Origin: a virus
Lineage: Duplodnaviria; Heunggongvirae; Uroviricota; Caudoviricetes
DNA: 15,952 bases
Direction: 5' to 3' (one strand)
IMG/VR virus record: IMGVR_UViG_2874920711_000013
Location: 1 to 15,952 of that record
Notes under the pieces: model-generated
What the model saw: the letters and a program-made list of their open reading frames with translations, nothing else
What the model was told of the DNA's origin: nothing
Databases searched by the model: none
Program-made: the position numbers and the translations under genes
Part shown: in pieces, positions 1 through 15,952 of the stretch
How the letters are laid out: every line of letters begins with the position of its first letter
Position numbering within the stretch: position 1 is the first letter of the stretch

Positions 1-1199
1 TCAGGCCGGCATATACCTCAGCAGACTGATATCCCGCGCGTTTTTCTTCAGCCCCTCCACATTCAGTCCCGCGATGGCCCGGCGGTATACCATCCGGCCG
101 CCACACAGCACGCATTCAAACGGGTCACGACTCAGGAACTGCTTCACCATTTGTGCATAGCACACCTTCGCCACCGGTGCCGGTTTATCCATCCCCAGAG
201 CACGGTACACCTGCGGCAGCTTCTCTCCACACACCCGGTTGGCAAGGAACCCGAAGTACCTCACCATCTTAAAAAACTTCTCCGGGATGTGCTGTTTCAG
301 CCTCGCGACCAGCTCACGCTGTGTCAGCGTTTCCGTCGCCGTTTCTCCCGTTTTGTGGTCCAGGTAACGGAAGCTCAGGCTCGCCCCTCCGTTGTAATGT
401 GCCAGCCGGGAGGCCGCTATCGGCGGCTTCTTCAGATAACGACCCAGGTAGCGCGCCGTATTCCTCCCGCCGGCCGTTTTTTTCGACATGTACACATGCC
501 AGTATTTTCCTCCGGCTTTCAGCACCAGGCTTCTCCTCTGTGATTCCGTCGTGATATGTGACAACGACTCCGGCATCGCCAGCCCTCTGACCACGCTTTC
601 AGAAGCCGTTGCCGCATATTCCACATCCACCGCGAACGCATCGCGTCTTTCAGGAAGCTCAGCTTTTTCCACTGACCATGCTTATTCAGATCTCCACAGG
701 TTACAGACACATGTACATGCGGATGCCAGTTGAGACGACGGCCATACGTGTGGATGGCGCAGAAGATACCGGGTTCCTGCCCCCGTTTCCGGGCGGCATA
801 CAGCAGATTCTCCACCGCCAGACGGCACACGTCATTCAGCAGCCACCGGTTGCTTTCGAACACCGGCCACAGCGTGTCCGGCAGGGTGAAGACCAGGTGT
901 ACCCAGTCGCAGTCAGGAAGACGATTCAGCTGTGTCGCTATCCACAGGTCTGTGGCCTTTTTTCCGCAGGACGGGCAGGCACGGCTGCCGCATGAGTTAG
1001 TGACGTATCTGACGTGGGGGCACTCAGGTTTATCGCAGTTGTATTCCTTCACGCCCAGTATCCGCGTGCCGCAGGCCAGCATTTTGGTGACAGCCTCAAC
1101 CTCGATATCGCGCAGACCGCCCGCATCCAGGAAGGATGTCCAGCACTGGTTGGCCGTGAACAGACGTTTCAGCGGGCGGGGAGTAAAAGCGGACAACAT
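1..1199 (-). pseudogene. IS91-family (HUH-Y2 rolling-circle) transposase, split across two frames (N-part 519..1199, C-part 1..672); C-terminus runs off the window start
   Basis: N-part has a Cys-rich zinc-binding motif (CPHVRYVTNSCGSRACPSCGKK) and the HUH motif (NWHPHVHV). C-part has the YxxxYxxK two-tyrosine motif (ARYLGRYLKKPP). The two frames are reconciled by restoring one base in the C-run at 583-585. Confidence 0.8.
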
Positions 1200-1903: not shown

Positions 1904-3165
1904 TCAGGCTGCCTTATGCTGCCGCGCATAAATGTACGGCGCGACATACCCCTCGCGGCACACATCCAGATAATCCGACCACCACTGCATCATGGCCTTT
2001 CTGGCCTCCAGATGCTCTGCTTTATGCACATATGCCGCCCGCACGCTGTTGCGCTCCTGGTGGCTCATTTGCCGCTCCACCGTATCGCGTGACCACAGGT
2101 CCGACTCCACCAGGGCGCTACAGGCCATTGCCCTGAGTCCATGCCCACAGACTTCAGTTTTCGTATCATACCCATCAGACGCAGCGCCCGGTTGGTGGTG
2201 TTTTCACTCATTGGCTTGTACGGATTATGGTCGCCGGGAAACACCAGATCCAGATGGCCGGAAAGCTCCTGTATCTGTTTCAGAATGGCAATCGCCTGGC
2301 GGGAGAGCGGCACGATATGCGGGGTACGCATTTTTGCGCCACGCCCCGAAAACCGTACTTTATCAATTGCCTCGCGGGTGGCGGGAATGGTCCAGATTTT
2401 GTGCCTGAAATCGATCTCGCTCCAGCGGGCGAAACGCAGCTCGCTGGAACGGATAAACAGATGCAGCGTCAGCCCCACCGCCAGCCGGGTTAACTCCCGG
2501 CCCTGCCGGTAGTCGCCAATGCGGCCAAGCAGTTCAGGCAATCGCTCCAGCGGTAAAGCGGGATAGTGATTCTTTACGGGTGAGGCGACAACGCCATCCA
2601 GATGCTGCGCCGGATTGCTTGCGGTCAGTCCCTGCTGAACGGCATAGCGCATGATGTTGCTGAGTTGCTGCCGGGTTCGGGACGCGACTTCCAGGAAGCC
2701 TTTATCCTCAATAATCAGCAGTAAAGCCGTGAAATCCTGCGTTTTAAGCGTGGCAACGGGCAGATGACCAATCGCCGGGAAGATATGGTTTTCCATACTG
2801 GCGAGAATACGGGCGGCATACTCAGCCGACCATTTTTTGTTGGTTTTGTGCCAGGCCAGCGCCACCGCCTTAAAGCACTTTTCAGGGGAGCAGGCTGCTT
2901 TCTCTGCCATGCGCTGCTGCGCCGGGTTGATATTCTGCGCCAGTAACTTACGGATACCGTCGCGCTGCTGCCTGGCTTCTGCCAGTGAGGCCAGCGGATA
3001 TGCGCCAAGACTGACTCTGGATTCTTTTCCGTTGAAACGATATTTGCGATACCAGATGCGTGAACCGCTCGGATTGACGAGCAGATACAGACCGTGAGAG
3101 CCGGAGAGTTTTACCGGACGGGAAGAGGGTTTTAACTTGCGGATTTTAGAATCGTTTAAAGACAT
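1904..3165 (-). pseudogene. P4-type tyrosine integrase (DUF4102 N-terminus plus phage-integrase catalytic domain), interrupted by one frameshift
   Basis: N-terminus MSLNDSKIRKLKP...GLYLLVNPSGSRIWYRKYRF is typical of P4-like integrases; ATG at 3165 with GGAG upstream. The catalytic C-terminus (HGLRAMACSALVES...SHQERNSVRAAYVHKAEHLEARK) is in another frame (1904..2182). The frames are reconciled by one extra base in the C-run at 2171-2173. The gene sits beside the 3' side of tRNA-Asn in the same orientation. Confidence 0.85.
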
Positions 3166-3326: not shown

Positions 3327-3402
3327 TGGCTCCTCTGACTGGACTCGAACCAGTGACATACGGATTAACAGTCCGCCGTTCTACCGACTGAACTACAGAG
3401 GA
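3327..3402 (-). tRNA. asnT: tRNA-Asn (anticodon GUU)
   Basis: 76-nt sequence on the minus strand, TCCTCTGTAGTTCAGTCGGTAGAACGGCGGACTGTTAATCCGTATGTCACTGGTTCGAGTCCAGTCAGAGGAGCCA, matching the E. coli Asn tRNA with encoded CCA. The asnT name comes from its position next to mtfA. Confidence 0.95.
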
Positions 3403-4393: not shown

Positions 4394-4483
4394 GGAGAGA
4401 TGCCGGAGCGGCTGAACGGACCGGTCTCGAAAACCGGAGTGGGGGCAACTCCACCGGGGGTTCAAATCCCCCTCTCTCCGCCA
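4394..4483 (+). tRNA. serU: tRNA-Ser (anticodon CGA), class II tRNA with long variable arm
   Basis: 90-nt sequence GGAGAGATGCCGGAGCGGCTGAACGGACCGGTCTCGAAAACCGG...GGTTCAAATCCCCCTCTCTCCGCCA; anticodon loop CU-CGA-AA. Confidence 0.95.
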
Positions 4484-4528: not shown

Positions 4529-4559
4529 CTTGGAATTACTTGGAATATTTTCTTGGAAT
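4529..4559. repeat. three direct CTTGGAAT repeats between the serU 3' end and the end of int (candidate integrase arm-type sites)
   Basis: CTTGGAAT at 4529-4536, 4539-4546 and 4552-4559. The last two are a 13-bp tandem repeat inside the final int codons (ENIPRKYSK). Confidence 0.45.
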
Positions 4560-5561
4560 ATTTTCAGGTAACGGGACATCAAGTGTCGGTGAAACTTTAA
4601 CCTTCCTGTCATAGATTAGCACTTGCCCCTCGGTTTTGTGACCAGAGAAAAGTTGCTTATCCCGACTGCTTCCTTCATAGTCTGAAATTCCTTTCGCCTT
4701 CAGATCATGAAAGGTGAAGTCGGTTAAAATACCTGAAATTTTGCCTGCGCGATTTCTTGCTTCTACCCACATTTCGTTAAAGCCTTTGTACATATATCGG
4801 TTGCCGTATTGATTGCTGATTACATAGGCGGATGTTGGTAACTGTTTTGCTTTTTCGATCGCCGCCTGTAATCGTGGACTCCATGCTTTTATCTGTTTTT
4901 TTCCTGTTTTCCCTTGCTGGATAAAGATCCCGTCGTTTCCAATCTGCTCCCATTTCAGCGATAACACATCGGAAACCCTCGCTGCACACAGATAGGCAAT
5001 TTCCATTGCGATAAAAACAGGAAGAGGTGCAACGCTTAATACTGCCTGGTATTCTTTGTCGGTTACATATCGTTCGCGGTTTTTGGCCTTGAATTTACTT
5101 ACACCTGCACATGGGTTAGCCTTCACGTACCCTCGCTCATACCCCCAACTGTAAACGCGGGACATACTGCTTTTTTCATGGTTGGCTTGCGTTTTACTCT
5201 GTTCCCCTCTCTTGTCCATGTATCGACGGATGTGTTCTGGTTTTATGGAATCTGCCGGCACCTTACCGAATACGGCAAGCAACTTTTTTTGATGTTGCAG
5301 ATAATCTTTTTGTGTTCTTGGACTGAGGTCACTGTAATAGGCGCTGGCGAGGAATTTTTCCCACAAGCGACCGAATGTCATTGCACGATCGCGATTATTT
5401 ACAGTTTCCTCATACTTTTTCCATAAAGCAGCTAAACCATCCTTGATGGCGGTTAGTGTTACAGATTCTCTGGATGTTGGTTTCCATACATAACTATATT
5501 TATTTGGGTATACATTTGGAGGTAATTTTTCGTGTTCAGGATTTTTCCTTCGTCTTCCCAT
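4536..5561 (-). CDS. int: prophage integrase, lambda-Int family tyrosine recombinase, 341 aa
   Basis: N-terminus MGRRRKNPEHEKLPPNVY resembles the lambda Int arm-binding domain. Catalytic region carries R (AARVSDV), K (QGKTGKK), H (FTFHDLK), H (SGHKTEG) and Y (VLIYDRK). The gene converges on the serU 3' end and is coupled to the upstream xis (TGATG overlap at 5559-5563). Confidence 0.9.
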   Translation of the reverse strand: MGRRRKNPEHEKLPPNVYPNKYSYVWKPTSRESVTLTAIKDGLAALWKKYEETVNNRDRAMTFGRLWEKFLASAYYSDLSPRTQKDYLQHQKKLLAVFGKVPADSIKPEHIRRYMDKRGEQSKTQANHEKSSMSRVYSWGYERGYVKANPCAGVSKFKAKNRERYVTDKEYQAVLSVAPLPVFIAMEIAYLCAARVSDVLSLKWEQIGNDGIFIQQGKTGKKQIKAWSPRLQAAIEKAKQLPTSAYVISNQYGNRYMYKGFNEMWVEARNRAGKISGILTDFTFHDLKAKGISDYEGSSRDKQLFSGHKTEGQVLIYDRKVKVSPTLDVPLPENIPRKYSK

Positions 5562-5730
5562 CAGATCGCACCAAAATTCGGCTCTACCTCGCGTGGTGGT
5601 AAAGTTTTATTGCAGGTAAATAGATCCCGGCTGACAATCGGTTTGCCACTACGATTGGTATAGAACGGAAGCCCGTTTTCCATTAACCATTTTCGCTGGT
5701 GGCTTGCATATTTGCAGCCCGTTAATATTA
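5561..5730 (-). pseudogene. xis: excisionase (Xis-like winged-helix protein) interrupted by an IS insertion; this is the 3' part, and the first 11 codons lie at 6647..6680
   Basis: Removing the IS (5731..6644) and one TA copy restores a 67-aa ORF MSSLFLTEDELLILTGCKYASHQRKWLMENGLPFYTNRSGKPIVSRDLF..., which fits the excisionase pattern (LTG...W...NG.PF....GKP.V.R). Its stop overlaps the int start. Confidence 0.6.
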
Positions 5731-6644
5731 GGCTGTGTCCCTTAATCATCTGAGCTATAGTAACTGTCTGTTTACACAACATATTGAACTATGGCTCGCT
5801 ACGACCTTCCCGATGAGGCATGGACCATCATCAAGCCCCTGTTACCTCCTGAACCCGCCACACCACGGGCCGGACGCCCATGGGCTGAGCACCGTAAAAT
5901 CATCAATGGCATGTTCTGGGTGTTATGTTCCGGTGCACCATGGCGCGATTTACCCGAACGATATGGGTCATGGAAAACTGTTTATAACCGCTTTAACCGA
6001 TGGTCAAAGTCAGGCGTGATTAATATTATTTTCAACAGGTTGCTTTCGCTACTTGATGCAAACGGCTTTATTGACTGGTCTGCCACCGCGCTGGATGGCA
6101 GTAATATCCGGGCGCTGAAATGTGCCGCCGGTGCTCAAAAAAACATCCCGATATCGACGGAGATAATGGGCTGGGTCGCTCTCGCGGCGGTTTTGGCACC
6201 AAAATCCATCTGGCAACAGACGGAAGTGGCCTCCCGTTAAATATCGTGCTAAGCCCGGACAAGCTCATGAAAGCCAGTTCGCGCAACGACTTCTGGACGG
6301 GATTGGCGTTCAGCGTCAGAACGGCAGCATGAAACGCCGTGGACATGCGGTACTGGCTGATAAAGCGTATTCAGGGCGCGCATTGCGCAACGAGCTGAAA
6401 AATAACGGTATAAAGGCAGTAATCCCCGAAAGTCAAATGAGAAAATGGCATCGGATGGACGTGCACAGCTTGATCGTGATGCGTACTGCAATCGTAATGT
6501 CGTTGAACGGTGCTTTGGGCGGCTGAAAGAATATCGCCGCATCGCCACGCGTTACGACAAAACGGCGAGAAATTACCTGGCGATGGTGAAACTGGGCTGC
6601 ATCCGACTCTTTTATCAACGCTTACGTAATTAAGGGACACAGCC
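5731..6644 (+). mobile_element. IS5-family (IS427-like group) insertion sequence, 914 bp, inserted in xis
   Basis: Perfect 16-bp terminal inverted repeats GGCTGTGTCCCTTAAT (5731-5746; reverse complement at 6629-6644) flanked by a TA direct duplication (5729-5730 and 6645-6646). The transposase begins MARYDLPDEAWTIIKPLLPP. Confidence 0.8.
5791..6633 (+). pseudogene. IS5-family transposase (OrfA/OrfB), reading frame broken at three homopolymer sites
   Basis: Conserved transposase segments lie in four successive frames (5791-6240, 6120-6332, 6329-6526, 6445-6633), including ADKAYSGRALRNELKNNGIKAVIPESQ and ERCFGRLKEYRRIATRYDKTARNYLAMV. Shifts are at the A7 run 6137-6143, CCCGG at 6254-6258 and AAA at 6435-6437; each is -1. 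The A7 site could be a natural programmed frameshift. Confidence 0.75.
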
Positions 6645-6738: not shown

Positions 6739-8010
6739 TTAAAAATCAGCCTGACTCGGGATCAGTTTTTGCCAGATAGCTGAAACGTATTTTGCCTGGT
6801 AACGAGCGTCATCAAGTGCATTATGGCGCTCACCTTCGAATGGAATAGCCGTTCTGGCATCGAAGTCTATGGCTTTCCCCAGCTCAACGATTGTGCGTAC
6901 ATCGCGATCGTTGTAGTAACGCCACGGGCAGGGGATCCCCTGCCGTTCGTATGAACGGCGCAAAATCGTGTTGTCGAAGTTGGCTCCATTTCCCCAGACC
7001 TGAACAAAAAATTCACCGGAGTTTTCGTCGATAAATTCCCGCAATTGTAACAGTGCATCATCTAACGGGATTTCATCGGTCATAATGGCAGATTGCGCTT
7101 CGCGTGATTGCTTAAGCCACCATTTAATGGTGTCCCGATCAATGACTCCGCCAGCAGTTTCCAGATCGATAGTCTTACTAAATTCGGGTCCCATATCTCC
7201 GGTTTGCGGATCGAAAAATATTGCACCTATTGAGATGATCGGGGCATCAGGATTTTTTCCCATGGTTTCAAGGTCGATCATTAGATGGTCACACGTCCTG
7301 CTGGTGGATGTGATTTCGTGATGACCATTCACCGTAATTAAGGGATCTGCCGTCTCGCCAGTTTTACTATCGCTGGCGTGGTCCTGAGCGCTGCCAGCAT
7401 TCTCCTTGTGTGGATGTTCAGCGCCTTCCATTTCCTCCGGATCATTTTCCTGAACTTCAACCTGATTCTCTTCATCGAATGTTTTCTGGTATGTTGCGTC
7501 GTCCATCACCGCGCCACAATCAGGGTAGTTGCCGCCACCGCTCTGACCGCAGGCGGTGCAGACTTTTTCCGGTTCCTGTTGCGCTACTGGTTCGGATTGT
7601 TTCGTTTCTGGCTCGTTTTGTAACGCATTTGGGCTGTTTTGTTCCGCTTTTTGGTCGTTCCGTTCCGATTCATGCTGGTTCTGGTTCACAGAATCGCGAG
7701 TCTGGATCCCCTTGACCCATTTCGGATCATTAGGGTCGCTAATCCCCTCAACAAATTCACCACGCGATACAGCAAGTAACTTATCGGCGTCAGGCTGGCT
7801 GATATTGGCTGCCTGCATAATTTTGTTTACTTCGTCAGCGGTGACTTTTACTTGGTTAGCGGAACTCACCTGCGACTGAGCATCCAGCGACTGCGCGTTC
7901 TGGCAATGTTCAGTTGTATCCGGTTCCATTGTTTCAGTTGTTGCCTGTTCACCTGCCATTGCGTCAGATGGTTGTGGTTTTTCTTCTTCTGTTTCACGCT
8001 CAGTAACCAC
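6739..8010 (-). CDS. prophage exonuclease: DnaQ-like DEDDh 3'-5' exonuclease domain after a long acidic low-complexity region; true 5' end uncertain
   Basis: C-terminal domain has the three DEDDh motifs: [21 protein letters not shown] and [14 protein letters not shown]. The listed start is a GTG with a poor ribosome-binding site. Coding-like sequence continues upstream in another frame (8045..8219) across an A5 run at 8038-8042. Confidence 0.75.
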
Positions 8011-8163
8011 CTCGCGGTTAATTTCTTCCAGGATATCTTTTTCCGGCGTATGCCGGGCAGCTGTGAGAGTTTCCTTGCTGGGTTCTCGTGATCAGTTTCT
8101 GTCAAATAGGCGTTGATATACCCCTGAAGGCGTCCCGGGTAGTGATAAAATTCAGGGGTGCGC

Positions 8164-9177
8164 TTAGGATAAGTGCAAAAATAGCGGCGCGGGAATAGTC
8201 CAGAATACCCGGGTTGCACGAAGTGCTGCGGACCATTCTTTGAACGGACTTTCTTTTTTCAGGACTACTTCTTTTGCGCGACGATAAACGCTGCCCGGAA
8301 TTTCATAAATATTAAAATCCATCGGAAGTGTGGCTGCTGCAATCTCCACATCCAGTGTGTCGAGGGTGTGTACTAAATTCGGATTGCGATCGGTTTTGTT
8401 CCCACCGCCAGCATTAGCACCGGAAGCCGTGCGGGTGATGCGTGAAACACGATTTCCTTTCATCCACTCTTTTGTCAGCAGACCCCGATCAGTGTAGTCA
8501 GCGTCCAGGTATGCTTCGAAAAAAGCAGTTATTAGTCCCAGGTCTGAATTACCAGGATTAGGGAAAACTTTGTCAGTGTCACGAACCAGTTTGTGGAGGT
8601 CGCGAATCTCCAGCGAGTCGAGCAGACTGGTTTTATGCGAAATAGCCAGGGCAGTAACAGCCGGTAGTTCTTCAGCCCGTGCAATGTGTAATGCCTGGAG
8701 TTCGTCGCGTGAAACGTGCGTTACTGGTTTTTCGCTGCCGTGTTGAGCAAGCCAACGAATGGGCAGTTCCTGACCGGAGACAGGTAGAAGCATGCTCTCC
8801 TCAATCTCAGTCATGTCTTCGCCGTTGATGTTGGTATTATCAGTGCTGGCTGATTTGTCCTGAACAGAGGGGGAAGGGCCGATAAATGTCATTGTGATGC
8901 CATCTTTCCCGCCTTTTTCATAGCGGTTGCAGAATTCAGTATCAAACACGCCTTCTGGCGGAAGGTCGTCAACAACGGGCAAATTGACGCGGACGGGTTT
9001 TTTAAAGTCGTCTTCATCATAATCGTTGTCATCCATTGCGGTAATGCAGCGGGAGATTGCAACAGATAATTTTTTTGCTGTAGTCCAGTAAAAACCACCT
9101 TTAATTCCTAGGCGTTTTCTTACTTTGACATTTTTTGCTTCGCAATATAGTGCAAATTCTTCTTTATCAGTGCTCAT
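8164..9177 (-). CDS. prophage protein of unknown function, 337 aa; possibly the N-terminal part of a larger exonuclease protein
   Basis: Long ORF with ATG at 9177. It occupies the ydfE-like position after ydfD in a Qin-type gene order. It is in the same frame as the exonuclease ORF. Confidence 0.6.
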
Positions 9178-9270: not shown

Positions 9271-9462
9271 TTAAAATCCTGCCGGGATTTCGTTATTATC
9301 CTGGTGAATAACTTTATCGACCGGATAACAGTTGCCTGGAATTTTCTGTTCGGTTGCTGCTGCCATACATTCCTGCATTGTTCTGTGAACACTGACTGCA
9401 ATATCAACTGGCTCTCCGGAAACAAGAAAAACCGTCAGAATAAGTGCAAATACTGGATTCAT
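9271..9462 (-). CDS. ydfD: YdfD-like small membrane/lysis protein, 63 aa
   Basis: MNPVFALILTVFLVSGEP... with a hydrophobic N-terminal segment. Its start overlaps the dicB stop (TCAT at 9459-9462). Length and position match Qin-prophage ydfD. Confidence 0.7.
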   Translation of the reverse strand: MNPVFALILTVFLVSGEPVDIAVSVHRTMQECMAAATEQKIPGNCYPVDKVIHQDNNEIPAGF

Positions 9463-9647
9463 TGTGCACATCCTTTTGGCATCAGACGTAAACGGGCCAG
9501 CATTGAAACAATGCATACTTTATTTAATAACTCCCGTTCGTGTTTTCTTTTGTTAATGGCCTCTTCAGTAAATACAGGATTACTGATAGTGACACCAATT
9601 TCAAAACAACCTTCAGACGTATTAACGTTTGGTAATAACGTTTTCAT
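9459..9647 (-). CDS. dicB: DicB cell-division inhibitor, 62 aa
   Basis: MKTLLPNVNTSEGCFEIGVTISNPVFTEEAINKRKHERELLNKVCIVSMLARLRLMPKGCAQ. GAGGG ribosome-binding site 8 nt upstream of the ATG at 9647. It lies directly downstream of DicF. Confidence 0.85.
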   Translation of the reverse strand: MKTLLPNVNTSEGCFEIGVTISNPVFTEEAINKRKHERELLNKVCIVSMLARLRLMPKGCAQ

Positions 9648-9820: not shown

Positions 9821-9873
9821 AGGGCGGCAGAGCAGTCACGGAGTAAAACTGATACCGCCAAACGTCACCAGAA
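9821..9873 (-). ncRNA. dicF: DicF small regulatory RNA (Hfq-dependent antisense RNA, ftsZ inhibitor)
   Basis: Minus-strand sequence TTTCTGGTGACGTTTGGCGGTATCAGTTTTACTCCGTGACTGCTCTGCCGCCC followed by a T-run (9816-9820). The terminator hairpin is GGCGG...CCGCC. Identification is from my recollection of the DicF sequence. Confidence 0.8.
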
Positions 9874-10593: not shown

Positions 10594-10749
10594 TCACCCA
10601 CCTGAATTTCTTTCCAGCCAGCGACGCGCTCCAGATTCGGTTTTAAACGTTTTGCTTTTGGTATACGTCATTGCGGTGAAGGTGCCGTCCTGGTTGGGAA
10701 ACACGCCGTACACCAGAGATTCGTTGTTGCCAAGATCGATAGTATCCAT
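10594..10749 (-). CDS. ydfA: YdfA-like small protein, 51 aa
   Basis: ATG at 10749 with GAGG 7 nt upstream, encoding MDTIDLGNNESLVYGVFPNQDGTFTAMTYTKSKTFKTESGARRWLERNSGG. The longer track ORF (to 10872) reads into the IS66 end and is not native. Confidence 0.7.
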   Translation of the reverse strand: MDTIDLGNNESLVYGVFPNQDGTFTAMTYTKSKTFKTESGARRWLERNSGG

Positions 10750-10893
10750 GCTGACCTCATTTCCCCTTAACGCCGGGGTAGCGGAACAAAAACCTGCTGC
10801 ATAGTTATTAAGTAAGCGCCCCATCAGCGACGTCTTGTGAAAATTGTCCTGTCTGGCAACAATCGCGCCCATCTATATTGATGGACACGAACG

Positions 10894-11568
10894 ATGAATT
10901 CCCAGACAACAAAAGATATTCCCTGCTTCCGTTCTTATTTGCCTGATGCCCTGCGTTTAAGATTTGAAGATAAACTGACCATCCGGGCCATCGCTCAGCG
11001 TCTGGGTCTCAGTCATTCCACAATACATACGCTTTTTCAGCGATTTCTTGCATCCGGTATCGCATGGCCATTGCCCGATTCAGTTTCATTCGCTCAACTT
11101 GACGCCATCCTTTATGCCAACAGAAAGAAGGAATTAACAGAGCCTCAAATCAGAGAAGGCTCATGGCGAAAAGAACGGCGAACCAGCTATAGCCGTGAAT
11201 TTAAGGCCCGTCTGGCTAAGCAGGCGTTACAGCCTGGGGCTGTTGTTGCCCGGATCGCCAGAGAACACGATATCAATGATAACCTGCTGTTTAAATGGAA
11301 AAGCCAGTACGAGGACGGCTTACTGAGCGATGATGACATACAGGAATGCATGCCTGTCCCGGTGGCACTGACTGATACGCCGGAGCCGACCAGACCAGTT
11401 ACAAATCCCTTCTGGCGTAACAAGCATGATGAGCGCCCTGAGGGGGCTCCCGGAAACGTCCCACGGTGCGAGCTGCATCTTAAATCAGGTGTGGTAAAAC
11501 TGTTTGACCCTCTCACTCCGGAACTGTTACGGGCGCTAATCCGCGAAATGAAAGGGGGTATCCGATGA
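10894..11568 (+). CDS. IS66-family accessory protein OrfA (helix-turn-helix), 224 aa
   Basis: C-terminal half (RRTSYSREFKARLAKQALQPGAVVARIAREHDINDNLLFKWKSQYEDG) matches the IS66/IS3-type OrfA pattern. ATGA overlap with the next gene at 11565-11568. Confidence 0.7.
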   Translation: MNSQTTKDIPCFRSYLPDALRLRFEDKLTIRAIAQRLGLSHSTIHTLFQRFLASGIAWPLPDSVSFAQLDAILYANRKKELTEPQIREGSWRKERRTSYSREFKARLAKQALQPGAVVARIAREHDINDNLLFKWKSQYEDGLLSDDDIQECMPVPVALTDTPEPTRPVTNPFWRNKHDERPEGAPGNVPRCELHLKSGVVKLFDPLTPELLRALIREMKGGIR

Positions 11569-11912
11569 TAACGCTGCCGACCGGTACCAGAATCTGGATC
11601 ATCGCTGGCATCACAGATATGCGTTGTGGCTTCAATGGCCTGGCTTCGAAGGTGCAGAACACGCTGAAAGATGACCCGTTCTCCGGGCATATCTTCGTCT
11701 TCCGGGGCCGCAGTGGCAAAATGGTGAAAATACTGTGGGCCGATCGTGACGGGTTATGCCTGTTCGCCAAACGCCTGGAACGGGGCCGCTTCGTCTGGCC
11801 GGTGACCCGGGAAGGGAAAGTGCACCTGACGCCAGCTCAGTTATCCATGCTACTGGAGGGGATCGCGTGGCAACATCCCAAACGGACAGAACGGCCTGGC
11901 ATCCGGATATAA
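11565..11912 (+). CDS. IS66-family TnpB (Orf2), 115 aa
   Basis: MITLPTGTRIWIIAGITDMRCGFNGLASKVQ...KMVKILWADRDGLCLFAKRLERGRFVWP is the characteristic IS66 Orf2 sequence. Confidence 0.85.
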   Translation: MITLPTGTRIWIIAGITDMRCGFNGLASKVQNTLKDDPFSGHIFVFRGRSGKMVKILWADRDGLCLFAKRLERGRFVWPVTREGKVHLTPAQLSMLLEGIAWQHPKRTERPGIRI

Positions 11913-11931
11913 CCCGTGATAAAACAAGGGA

Positions 11932-13487
11932 ATGAACAATGAACTCCCCGATGATATTGAGCTGCTTAAAGCCATGTTGCGTAAGCAACAGAGTCGGCTT
12001 CGACAGTATGCCTGTCAGGTCGCGGGCTATGAGCAGGAAATTGAACGGCTGAAAGCGCAACTCGACAGGTTGCGTCGTATGTTGTTCGGCCAGAGTTCAG
12101 AGAAAAAGCGTCATAAGCTTGAAAATCAGATCCGACAGGCAGAAAAACGACTGTCGGAACTGGAAAACCGGCTGAACACAGCCAGAAATCTTCTGGAAGA
12201 TGCATCGTCAGTCACAGATTCACCTGACACCAGTCCCCCGTCAGAAAACCCGATCGCCAGTAAGCCTGAATCCCCGGGAGACACATCGCCTTCTGCCTGC
12301 TGAAACCAGTTGCCCGGCCTGTGGAGGTGTTCTGAAAGAAATGGGGAAACAATCTCAGAGCAACTGGATATCATTAATACCGCCTTTAAAGTTATCGAAA
12401 CCATACGTCCCAAACTGGCCTGTAGCCGGTGTGATGTCATCGTTCAGGCACCACTTCCCCTAAACCGATCGAACGCGGTTATGCCAGTGCAGGGTTACTT
12501 GCACGGATCCTGGTCAGCAAATATATGGAACATATCCCTTTATATCGCCAGTCAGAAATATACGCGCGACAGGGCGTGGAGCTGAGCCGTAATACCATGG
12601 TGCGCTGGGTATCAGAAATGGCAGACAAACTCCGTCCTCTGTATATAGCGCTGAATGACTATGTTCTGGAGGCAGGAAAGGTGCACGCAGATGACACTCC
12701 GGTGAAAGTACTGGCCCCGGGGAACGGAAAGACGAAAACGGGTCGTCTGTGGGTATACGTCAGGGATGATCGTAATGCGGGTTCATCCCTGCCGGCAGCC
12801 GTCTGGTTCGCGTATTCGGCAGATCGCAAAGGAGAACATCCGCAGCTCCACCTGGCAAAGTATCAGGGCGTACTGCAGGCTGATGCCTATGCAGGTTATA
12901 ACGTACTGTACGAAACGGGCCGGGTGAAGGAAGCCGGGTGCCTGGCCCACGCCCGCCGAAAAATCCATGACGAGGATGTGCGCCGTCCGACAGAAATGAC
13001 TCAGGAAGCGCTCAGACGGATAGCAGAGTTATACGACATAGAAGCGGAGATACGTGGCAGTCCGGCAGAGGAACGGCTTGCAGTCAGAAAAGCCAGAAGC
13101 GTCCAGTTGATGCAGTCGTTGTACGACTGGATACAGTTGCAGAGGAAAACGCTGTCGAAATATGCGGAGATGGCGAAGGCGTTCGACTATATCCTGAATC
13201 ACTGGAATGCGCTGAACGAGTTCTGTCGTGACGGCTGGGTGGAAATAGACAACAACATCGGTGAAAACGCGTTACGATCGGTGGCGGTTGGAAGAAAAAA
13301 TTATCTCTTTTTCGGCTCAGACAAGGGAGGAGAAAGTGCGGCGATCATCTACAGTCTGCTGGTCACCTGCAAACAGAACGAAGTGGAGCCGGAGGACTGG
13401 TTGCGCGAAGTGATCGAGAAGCTCAATGACTGGCCGTCGAACCAAGTGCATGAACTGCTGCCCTGGAACTTCTCGTCTGTAAAATAA
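11932..13487 (+). pseudogene. IS66-family transposase TnpC, broken by four single-base frameshifts
   Basis: N-terminal coiled coil (11932-12303), CxxC segment LPAETSCPACGG (frame of 12200-12463), SEQLDII...[16 protein letters not shown] (frame of 12310-12585) and the DDE domain LYRQSEIY...HADDTPV...[10 protein letters not shown] (12525-13487) lie in different frames. Shift sites are GGG 12276-12278, CC/TT near 12289-12292, GGGG 12343-12346 and CCCC 12457-12460. Confidence 0.85.
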
Positions 13488-13639
13488 TCCTTACGCTACG
13501 TACTTCTCGGGGCGCTTACGTTATTAAAGTTGAACCCTGCCGTCATGTTCTTACGCCTCGGGCTGGCTACTTAACCCCTGACCACTGCCTGGTAACTCGA
13601 AGTATTGCCCTGCATTCTGTGGGCGGGGTGGGTGGCAGG

Positions 13640-14260: not shown

Positions 14261-14515
14261 ATGAACCAGAAAACACTTGAAGATGTAATCAAAACTGTTC
14301 GCGTTGCTGTTGTGGCCGACGTTTGTGGTGTCAGCCAAAGAGCAATCTATAAATGGATGGATAACGGAAAATTGCCTCGCACAGAATATACCGGCGAAAC
14401 AAATTACGCTGAAAAAATCGCTCTTGCATCAAACGGATTATTTTCTGCCGATGCAATTTTAACTATTGGCAGGAATAAAACTACTACGAAAAAGCTGATG
14501 GGAGTTGATTCATGA
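14261..14515 (+). CDS. Cro-like / YdaS-like helix-turn-helix protein, 84 aa
   Basis: ATG at 14261 with ribosome-binding site; helix-turn-helix segment VADVCGVSQRAIYKWMDNGKLP. Divergent from the repressor and translationally coupled to the next gene (ATGA at 14512-14515). Confidence 0.7.
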   Translation: MNQKTLEDVIKTVRVAVVADVCGVSQRAIYKWMDNGKLPRTEYTGETNYAEKIALASNGLFSADAILTIGRNKTTTKKLMGVDS

Positions 14516-14838
14516 AAATCAAGCATGAACACATCCGCATGGCGATGAATGCCTGGGCGCATCCGGACGGCGAAAAAGTACCGGCTGCGAAAATTACCAA
14601 AGCGTATTTCGAGCTGGGAATGACGTTCCCGGAACTGTATGACGACAGCCATCCGGAAGCCCTGGCTCGCAATACTCAGAAAATTTTCCGCTGGGTGGAG
14701 AAAGACACCCCTGATGCGGTTAAAAAAATTCAGGCGTTGTTACCAGCTATCGAAAAAGCAATGCCACCTCTGCTGGTGGCCCGAATGCGCAGTCATAGCT
14801 CAGCCTATTTTCGGGAACTAAATAGCTGCGCGGAATAG
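14512..14838 (+). CDS. YdaT-like protein, 108 aa
   Basis: N-terminus MKIKHEHI matches what I recall of Rac-prophage YdaT. The stop codon TAG (14836-14838) lies 2 bp before the IS630 left end. Confidence 0.6.
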   Translation: MKIKHEHIRMAMNAWAHPDGEKVPAAKITKAYFELGMTFPELYDDSHPEALARNTQKIFRWVEKDTPDAVKKIQALLPAIEKAMPPLLVARMRSHSSAYFRELNSCAE

Positions 14839-14840
14839 TA

Positions 14841-15952
14841 GATCACTTTGAGGGAACTTAGCCCGGATTGTGCGATCTGATCAATCGCCAAATCAAAACA
14901 AATCACCAACCGGACTGAGCAATGCCGATCATAGCACCAATTTCCCGTGACGAACGACGCCTGATGCAGAAAGCCATCCATAAAACACACGATAAAAATT
15001 ATGCCCGCAGACTGACTGCCATGCTGATGCTGCACCGGGCGACCGTGTCAGCGACGTTGCCAGAACGCTCTGCTGCGCCCGTTCCTCTGTTGGACGCTGG
15101 ATTAACTGGTTCACGCAGTCGGGTGTTGAGGGACTGAAATCATTACCTGCCGGGCGTGCCCGTCGCTGGCCGTTTGAGCATATCTGCACACTGTTACGTG
15201 AGCTGGTAAAACATTCTCCCGGCGACTTTGGCTACCAGCGTTCACGCTGGAGTACAGAACTGCTGGCAATAAAAATCAATGAGATAACCGGTTGCCAGTT
15301 AAATGCCGGAACCGTTCGCCGCTGGTTGCCGTCTGCGGGGATTGTGTGGCGAAGGGCTGCGCCAACTCTGCGTATCCGTGACCCGTATAAAGATGAAAAG
15401 ATGGCAGCAATCCATAAAGCACTGGACGAATGCAGCGCAGAGCATCCGGTCTTTTATGAAGATGAAGTGGATATCCATCTTCATCCCAAAATCGGTGCGG
15501 ACTGGCAACTGCGCGGACAGCAAAAACGGGTGGTCACGCCGGGACAGAATGAAAAATATTATCTGGCCGGAGCGCTGCACAGCGGGACAGGTAAAGTCAG
15601 CTATGTGGGCGGCAACAGCAAAAGTTCGGCGCTGTTCATCAGCCTGCTGAAGCGGCTTAAAGCGACATACCGTCGGGCGAAAACCATCACGCTGATCGTG
15701 GACAACTACATTATCCACAAAAGCCGGGAAACACAGAGCTGGCTGAAGGAGAACCCGAAGTTCAGGGTCATTTATCAGCCGGTTTACTCGCCATGGGTGA
15801 ATCATGTTGAACGGCTATGGCAGGCACTTCACGACACAATAACGCGTAATCATCAGTGCCGCTCAATGTGGCAACTGTTGAAAAAAGTTCGCCATTTTAT
15901 GGAAACCGTCAGCCCATTCCCCGGAGGCAAACATGGACTGGCAAAAGTGTAG
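14841..15952 (+). mobile_element. IS630 (Tc1/mariner-like insertion sequence), partial; right end beyond the window
   Basis: The transposase matches my recollection of IS630 (MPIIAPISRDERRLMQKAIHKTHDKNYARRLTAML...HGLAKV). The left boundary is estimated (within about 5 bp) from the TA dinucleotide at 14839-14840. Confidence 0.8.
14922..15952 (+). pseudogene. IS630 transposase with a single-base frameshift
   Basis: N-terminal 40 aa are in one frame and the rest (..ELVKHSPGDFGYQRSRWSTELL...MPSAGIVWRRAAP...) in the -1 frame. Restoring one G in the GGG run at 15037-15039 gives a continuous reading frame. Confidence 0.85.

Follow-up and report, generated by a model that had tools for sequence, protein, structure and literature searches.

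The window, which is the whole stretch of 15,952 nucleotides that was analysed, is part of CP026824.1 (GCA_002949875.1). This host chromosome is IS-ridden and of Shigella type. The operon in the window comprises, in order, ydfA, ydfB, ydfC, the DicF RNA, dicB, ydfD, an exonuclease gene, an inserted IS, a DUF4224 gene and int (Table 1). The same order of dicB and ydfD occurs in L001 and L002. The region between ydfD and the inserted IS is probably one gene, which belongs to a Qin-like defective lambdoid prophage and is located beside tRNA-Ser and mtfA. The initial annotation of this DNA had reported no Bet, RecT or Erf gene in the operon, and no RecT, Bet or Erf domain was found there. A match to PF03837 is likewise absent from the operon, in which the exonuclease gene is followed by the DUF4224 and integrase genes.

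Table 1. Features of the exonuclease locus and of its surroundings, in coordinates of the window
Feature	Position	Strand	Remarks
tRNA-Ser attachment region	4394-4483		Beyond the integrase
DUF4224 protein (5561-5782) and tyrosine integrase (4536-5561)	4536..5782	(-)	Downstream
IS5-family element (ISSfl7-like)	5732..6644	(+)	Inserted beyond the exonuclease stop codon, before the DUF4224/integrase genes
Private deletions in the IS5-family (ISSfl7-like) copy	6253, 6423		Copy has one substitution
Disrupted exonuclease gene, whole	6739..9177	(-)	Corresponds to an uninterrupted prophage 'exonuclease' gene of 2442 bp and 813 codons (WP_139496770.1)
DEDDh 3'-5' exonuclease domain, PF16473, Rv2179c-like	6772..7287	(-)	Pfam E 4e-68
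Remaining RecE-like non-catalytic region, an acidic low-complexity linker	7333..8083	(-)	To residue ~616, intact numbering
Four-Cys motif, third Cys replaced by Tyr	7516..7560	(-)	C552Y at base 7526; G560D nearby at 7502
A5 run	8038..8042	(-)	Length as in intact genes; not a break point
Deletion 3	8080..8083, at ~8083	(-)	C4 to C3; GAACCCCAGC to GAACCCAGC; back to the start-codon frame
Deletion 2	8157..8158, at ~8158	(-)	Intact CACACCC, here CACCCC; second frame shift
Deletion 1	8211..8214, at ~8214	(-)	C4 in intact genes, C3 here; CAACCCCGGG to CAACCCGGG
Start-frame segment, residues 1-321	8215..9177	(-)	Contains the PF06630 match (residues 57-189, ~8611-9009)
A6 run	8254..8259	(-)	Length as in intact genes; frame unbroken at this site
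ydfD (DUF1482, ~9271-9462) and dicB (~9459-9647)	9271..9647	(-)	Upstream, same early-left operon
Private deletions in the ISSfl3 copy	12342, 12456		Segment has one substitution
Private deletion in a 1301-bp stretch	13620		Stretch without substitution relative to E. coli DETEC-E601

As written, the exonuclease gene consists of two open reading frames on the minus strand. The N-terminal one (9177-8164) encodes 337 aa. The C-terminal one (8010-6739) encodes 423 aa from a GTG codon, or 406 aa from the ATG at 7959. That both share one frame, and that another frame is open across the interval between them, had been noted initially and is the case; the interval was given as about 190 bp and measures 153 bp (8011-8163). 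From the record as it stands the fusion protein would not be makeable, and only the 337-aa N-terminal fragment would be produced.

In other genomes the two parts form one gene. A place covering at least 80% of 6739-9177 was found by megablast in 1236 of 5426 complete E. coli genomes. In this collection the best matches reach 99.7% identity over 2442 bases, each being annotated as a single CDS, 'exonuclease' or '3'-5' exonuclease'. E. coli SCU-105 (WP_139496770.1, 813 aa) and phage vB_EcoS-640R1 each carry one single gene, and in both of these intact loci dicB-ydfD lies upstream and DUF4224 or xis with int lies downstream. The initial annotation had proposed a single exonuclease of about 810 aa broken by indels and had named, as the finding that would speak against it, homologues consisting of two separate genes. 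Intact 813-codon genes are common at the 99.7% level, the homologues are single genes, and in none of the intact relatives compared does a stop followed by a restart separate the two parts. Judged from these alignments, the two open reading frames belong to one and the same gene, whose family is very common in E. coli prophages, already annotated and uncharacterised. The description as an unknown N-terminal protein with a separate exonuclease is wrong. The proper annotation is a single frameshifted gene or, after a check of the homopolymers, an intact one.

A base-by-base alignment with the SCU-105 gene showed eight differences, namely five substitutions (D17V, R338L, one silent change, C552Y and G560D) and three missing bases. 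The first deletion shifts the frame after Thr321, and the start frame then runs to a TAA at 8164-8166. All three frames are used in turn: residues 1-321 are read in the start frame, about 19 in the second, about 25 in the third, and the rest again in the start frame. The breaks had been placed initially at two A-run indels. They are three one-base deletions at the G/C-rich sites 8214, 8158 and 8083. In the third-frame peptide of 28 residues proposed to bridge the interval, the first 14 residues, up to ...DHENP, are right and the last 14 are out of frame.

The 337-aa product, first described as unknown, is the beginning of a RecE N-terminal region. It matches PF06630 (Exonuc_VIII) with an E value of 7.6e-37 (Pfam), and residues 58-616 of the intact protein are 46% identical to residues 50-616 of RecE from Rac-SA53 (1048 aa), in an alignment that takes in the motif CxACGQxGGGNCPDC. 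The NCBIfam RecE model NF007259 is matched over positions 1-603 of 877, with 945 bits, below its cut-off of 1269. By homology, residues 1-616 of the intact protein are the non-catalytic N-terminal region of RecE. The AlphaFold model of residues 1-322 is locally confident (mean pLDDT 83), and no informative structural neighbour was found for it. The N-terminal part is thus modelled as a confidently folding module, followed by an acidic linker that bears the four-Cys motif. This motif, first read as C-x2-C-x9-C, is C-x2-C-x10-C in the window and C-x2-C-x7-C-x2-C in relatives, with the third Cys being Tyr here. All four Cys are kept in every variant seen except the Shigella Tyr allele. C552Y is a real substitution because it is common to the Shigella contigs L005, L010 and L011; L005 also confirms G560D.

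Relatives of the N-terminal region number 173 among 1.84 billion representatives. Among the 75 that are at least 450 aa long, a RecE-type C-terminus is present in 21 and a DEDDh domain in 15 (phmmer), RecT in three more and PF12684 in one (Pfam). The remaining long representatives have no recognisable C-terminal domain, and some of these may be partial.

The C-terminal domain had been described as a DEDDh, DnaQ-like nuclease and not of the lambda Exo/RecE type, which is borne out by its match to PF16473 and by the alignment of the catalytic residues. The match spans residues 632-803 and scores 228-229 bits, compared with a gathering cut-off of 27 (Pfam). By sequence, the domain has relatives of solved structure only in 8KEL and 8KEN, both of them T4 DexA (227 aa, E 1.8e-6). 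The catalytic residues D636, E638, D736, H786 and D791 (intact numbering) align with DexA D7, E9, D119, H190 and D195. In PADLOC-DB 2.0, the intact protein has no defence-family match, and the C-terminal open reading frame has a weak generic CRISPR-associated DEDDh match (E 5.8e-6).

The question that follows is whether the three deletions are present in the bacterium. The changes private to the window in this gene are the three deletions, G>T at 8166 and G>A at 8100, all of them within 8083-8215 (133 bp). The probability that three uniformly placed events fall this close together (131 of 2439 bp) is p = 0.008. Gene conversion of a patch by a paralogue was considered as the origin of the 133-bp cluster and rejected, as no donor-like sequence was found in 5426 E. 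coli genomes. The 337-aa product occurs in the protein collection on the CP026824.1 contig only. The 221-bp stretch concerned is present in 1141 E. coli genomes, not one of which has any of the deletions (best identity 97.8%), and exact DNA patterns containing the deletions gave no match in the genome and metagenome collections.

Two short contigs, L010 from Shigella boydii and L011 from S. flexneri, carry the same Y552/D560 allele. From 8057 downwards they match the window without a difference, L010 as far as 7167 and L011 as far as 7094 (965 bp). Both are in frame through all three deletion sites and have G at 8166 and 8100, as in E. coli. The 406-aa C-terminal product was found on one other contig, L005, in which an IS cuts the gene at a position equivalent to ~8007, so that the three deletion sites are not readable there. 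By exact-sequence look-up in the protein collection, neither an intact twin of the window's allele nor the repaired 813-aa protein, nor any of five variants of the latter with subsets of the substitutions, was found.

Outside the gene, the window holds five further private one-base deletions, every one of them contracting a G/C run. They lie in two IS copies and in a stretch otherwise without substitutions (Table 1). Over the 11.5 kb that could be aligned at no less than 99% identity, 7 of 49 G/C runs (length of at least 4) are contracted, as against 0 of 168 A/T runs (Fisher p = 2e-5), even though 19 of these A/T runs are six or seven bases long. No private insertion was found in the 11.5 kb compared. 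Replication slippage is expected at long A/T runs first, and residual homopolymer deletions are typical of long-read-only assemblies. CP026824.1 may be one of a series of historical Shigella genomes sequenced by PacBio alone. Active Shigella IS elements do not look like the IS copies here, each of which has two frameshifts and hardly any substitution. Contractions of G/C runs without those of A/T runs, together with IS copies that are twice frameshifted, therefore read as a systematic consensus error. The three deletions are most likely consensus errors of the assembly, to which a probability of roughly 0.7 can be given, and the strain probably has an uninterrupted gene with the C552Y allele.

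The alternative that survives best is a true pseudogene, in which the three deletions and two substitutions are real and reflect the degeneration of a defective prophage in a genome of Shigella type. The 337-aa N-terminal fragment would then be the only product that could be made, the DEDDh part having no obvious ribosome-binding site of its own. Shigella genomes are rich in true pseudogenes. This prophage is decaying, as indicated by its IS insertions and by a ydaT of 108 aa compared with 141 aa in relatives, and the allele, which is seen in three independent assemblies, was already without one conserved Cys of the four-Cys motif. In a further assembly (L005) an IS interrupts the gene, and a separate frameshift allele, P0038, exists in other strains. 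Deletions of one base in G/C runs can also arise biologically. Because the prophage is decaying and the gene is inactivated in other ways in other strains, a true pseudogene stays a live alternative. Against it, however, all five private changes lie inside the 133 bp, outside which the gene does not differ from related alleles, and the deletions are common to no other assembly. In addition, the loss of one base in a G/C run is seen again and again in unrelated sequence that is otherwise nearly identical, with two events per IS copy, and there is neither a gain of a base nor a change in an A/T run. Such recurrence across the window indicates a systematic technical cause, and a true pseudogene is accordingly considered unlikely, although it carries most of the weight that consensus error leaves.

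Two truly separate genes, or programmed frameshifting across the gap, are highly improbable. The record as written does contain two open reading frames of 337 and 406-423 aa in the same frame; however, such an arrangement is found in no homologue, close relatives being single uninterrupted genes. Programmed frameshifting would need three successive shifts, and it was rejected because the shift sites are conserved nowhere. The least credible of all is the initial model, in which one gene is broken by an indel in each of the two A runs (A6, 8254-8259; A5, 8038-8042). The reading path that it proposes is open in the window, and the positions of the runs were given correctly. However, both runs equal those of intact genes base for base in the alignments and the deletions lie elsewhere, so the junction peptides reconstructed from this model are wrong and match the protein of no intact homologue. 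A shift at the A6 run does occur in other strains, in the allele P0038 (358 aa).

The finding matters mainly for annotation, and the break is probably technical. One-base deletions in G/C runs are also a warning that other 'pseudogenes' in this assembly may be technical too.

The function of the gene has to be considered for the intact form. Its 813-aa product consists of RecE-type residues 1-616, followed at ~632-803 by the DEDDh domain in place of the PD-(D/E)XK 5'-3' nuclease of RecE. It is predicted to be a metal-dependent 3'-5' DNA exonuclease, with polarity and substrate deduced from homology. On the same basis, the RecE-type N-terminal module may place or regulate the nuclease. Expression would be from the early-left operon, early after induction. 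The enzyme would presumably trim or destroy DNA ends, and would not take part in annealing of the Red/RecET type or provide 3' tails for it. Candidate biological roles are the exclusion of other phages, scavenging and end processing. A literature search on the Qin/ydfE exonuclease, or on Rv2179c-type domains in prophages, returned nothing, and the fusion of a RecE N-terminal region to a DEDDh domain is unstudied although the family is very common in E. coli prophages. A stand-alone relative of the nuclease domain has been reported to act against T4, which makes the intact gene, and not this copy, a reasonable candidate for testing. More speculatively, and doubtful at present, the RecE N-terminal region might be a portable module for varied DNA-processing domains, and the Qin-type fusion an anti-phage or end-scavenging nuclease that is targeted or controlled by this module, instead of a recombination enzyme.

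Among known systems, the C-terminal domain has its best solved relative in T4 DexA, a 3'-5' DNA exonuclease (T4 record annotation; PMC12153337) that is ~33% identical to it and has all five DEDDh residues in common with it. Unlike the domain in the window, DexA is itself free-standing, with 227 aa and extra loops. The tryptophan W152 of DexA corresponds to Tyr in the window's protein ('PWRYYNDRD'). The D169 loop is an insertion specific to DexA, and no acidic residue aligns with it here, in a part where the alignment is unreliable.

DexA and its stand-alone E. coli homologue EcD are reported to digest 5hmC DNA, and EcD to protect against T4 (PMC12153337, 2025). The Trp equivalent to DexA W152 was reported to be necessary for 5hmC recognition (PMC12153337). 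The comparison with EcD/HREX was made through a 189-aa protein (MIDTET...) in viral contigs that is found by the forward primer of PMC12153337, and not through the EcD sequence itself; this protein aligns along the whole domain. A DEDDh fold of the PF16473 family is shared, but EcD is a stand-alone protein of ~190 aa, whereas here the domain is fused behind ~620 RecE-like residues. The EcD-like 189-aa protein keeps the Trp, whereas the window's protein has Tyr. The change of Trp to Tyr, and a D169 loop without clear counterpart, argue for regarding the window's protein, as far as its sequence can tell, as a relative of EcD and not as a demonstrated member of that type of defence.

The Red system of lambda and RecET occupy the same genomic position in the lambdoid early-left operon. 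In contrast to them, the locus described here has neither an SSAP gene (Bet, RecT or Erf) nor a 5'-3' exonuclease, and therefore it cannot work as an exonuclease-annealase pair. Another parallel is the RecE of Rac, which has the same place in the early-left operon, between genes of the kil/dicB type and xis/int. PF06630, positions 1-603 of NF007259 and the CxxC...CxxC motif are shared with it. In Rac-SA53 recT comes directly after recE, whereas recT is lacking here. The PD-(D/E)XK nuclease (PF12684-like) at the C-terminus of the Rac-SA53 RecE is absent from the window's protein and is replaced by the DEDDh domain. Full-length RecE improves linear-linear recombination (PMC11611040). By its domain homologies, the protein of the Qin-like prophage is the non-catalytic part of RecE joined to a different nuclease.

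Besides the one-base deletions that break the exonuclease gene, five further private one-base deletions have been found in the window, at 6253, 6423, 12342, 12456 and 13620. All five are contractions of G/C runs, located either within copies of insertion sequences (IS) or in an intergenic stretch that shows no other difference, and they suggest a systematic homopolymer error in the assembly of the window. Many false pseudogenes in this assembly may be due to such an error. The split of the IS91-family transposase into two overlapping ORFs may be another frameshift of this kind.

Other inactivated alleles of the exonuclease gene have been identified. In contig L005:1-130 of GCA_902502095.1, which carries the Y552/D560 allele (substitutions C552Y and G560D), the gene is interrupted at the equivalent of window ~8007 by a sequence that resembles the end of an IS. 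The exonuclease gene was thus inactivated independently in this assembly. A different frameshift allele from other strains is represented by the 358-aa protein P0038 (20 members in Logan assemblies), in which the frame shifts at the counterpart of the window's A6 run at 8254-8259, within a peptide of which 18 residues were recorded (not shown). The initial annotation had suspected a shift at this A6 run in the window itself; it is absent there, though present in the P0038 allele. Relatives of the RecE N-terminal region (P0153-P0302; alignments A3 and A4) carry varied C-terminal domains, and three representatives have a RecT domain within the same polypeptide.

Features of the window outside the exonuclease gene
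Feature	Position	Strand	Remarks
IS91-family transposase, split	1-672, 519-1199		two overlapping ORFs; beyond mtfA and tRNA-Asn
Second integrase, P4-type	2065-3165		beyond mtfA and tRNA-Asn
tRNA-Asn	3327-3402		the P4-type integrase and the IS91-family transposase lie beyond it and mtfA
DicF antisense RNA	9822-9873	-	Rfam RF00039, 76.7 bits; between ydfC and dicB
ISSfl3 (IS66-family) copy	10812-13519		insertion at the prophage's ydfA end
ydaT-like ORF	14512-14838		108 aa vs 141 aa in relatives
DDE_3 (IS630-type) transposase ORF	15326-15952		window end, after the ydaT-like ORF

In the ISSfl3 copy, tnpC is split into ORFs of 123 aa and 320 aa. Compared with an intact copy, ~35-45 bp are missing near 12271-12279, where 9 bases are shared by both alignment blocks; this is in addition to the one-base deletions at 12342 and 12456. 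At the ydaT end, homology to E. coli stops at 14820. At 10659, the comparator E. coli SCU-105 (L001:5428-5584) has an extra base, T5 versus T4 in the window; its ydfA is annotated as frameshifted, whereas the DUF1391 domain is complete in the window. The DicF match confirms that the early region is of the Qin/dicB type.
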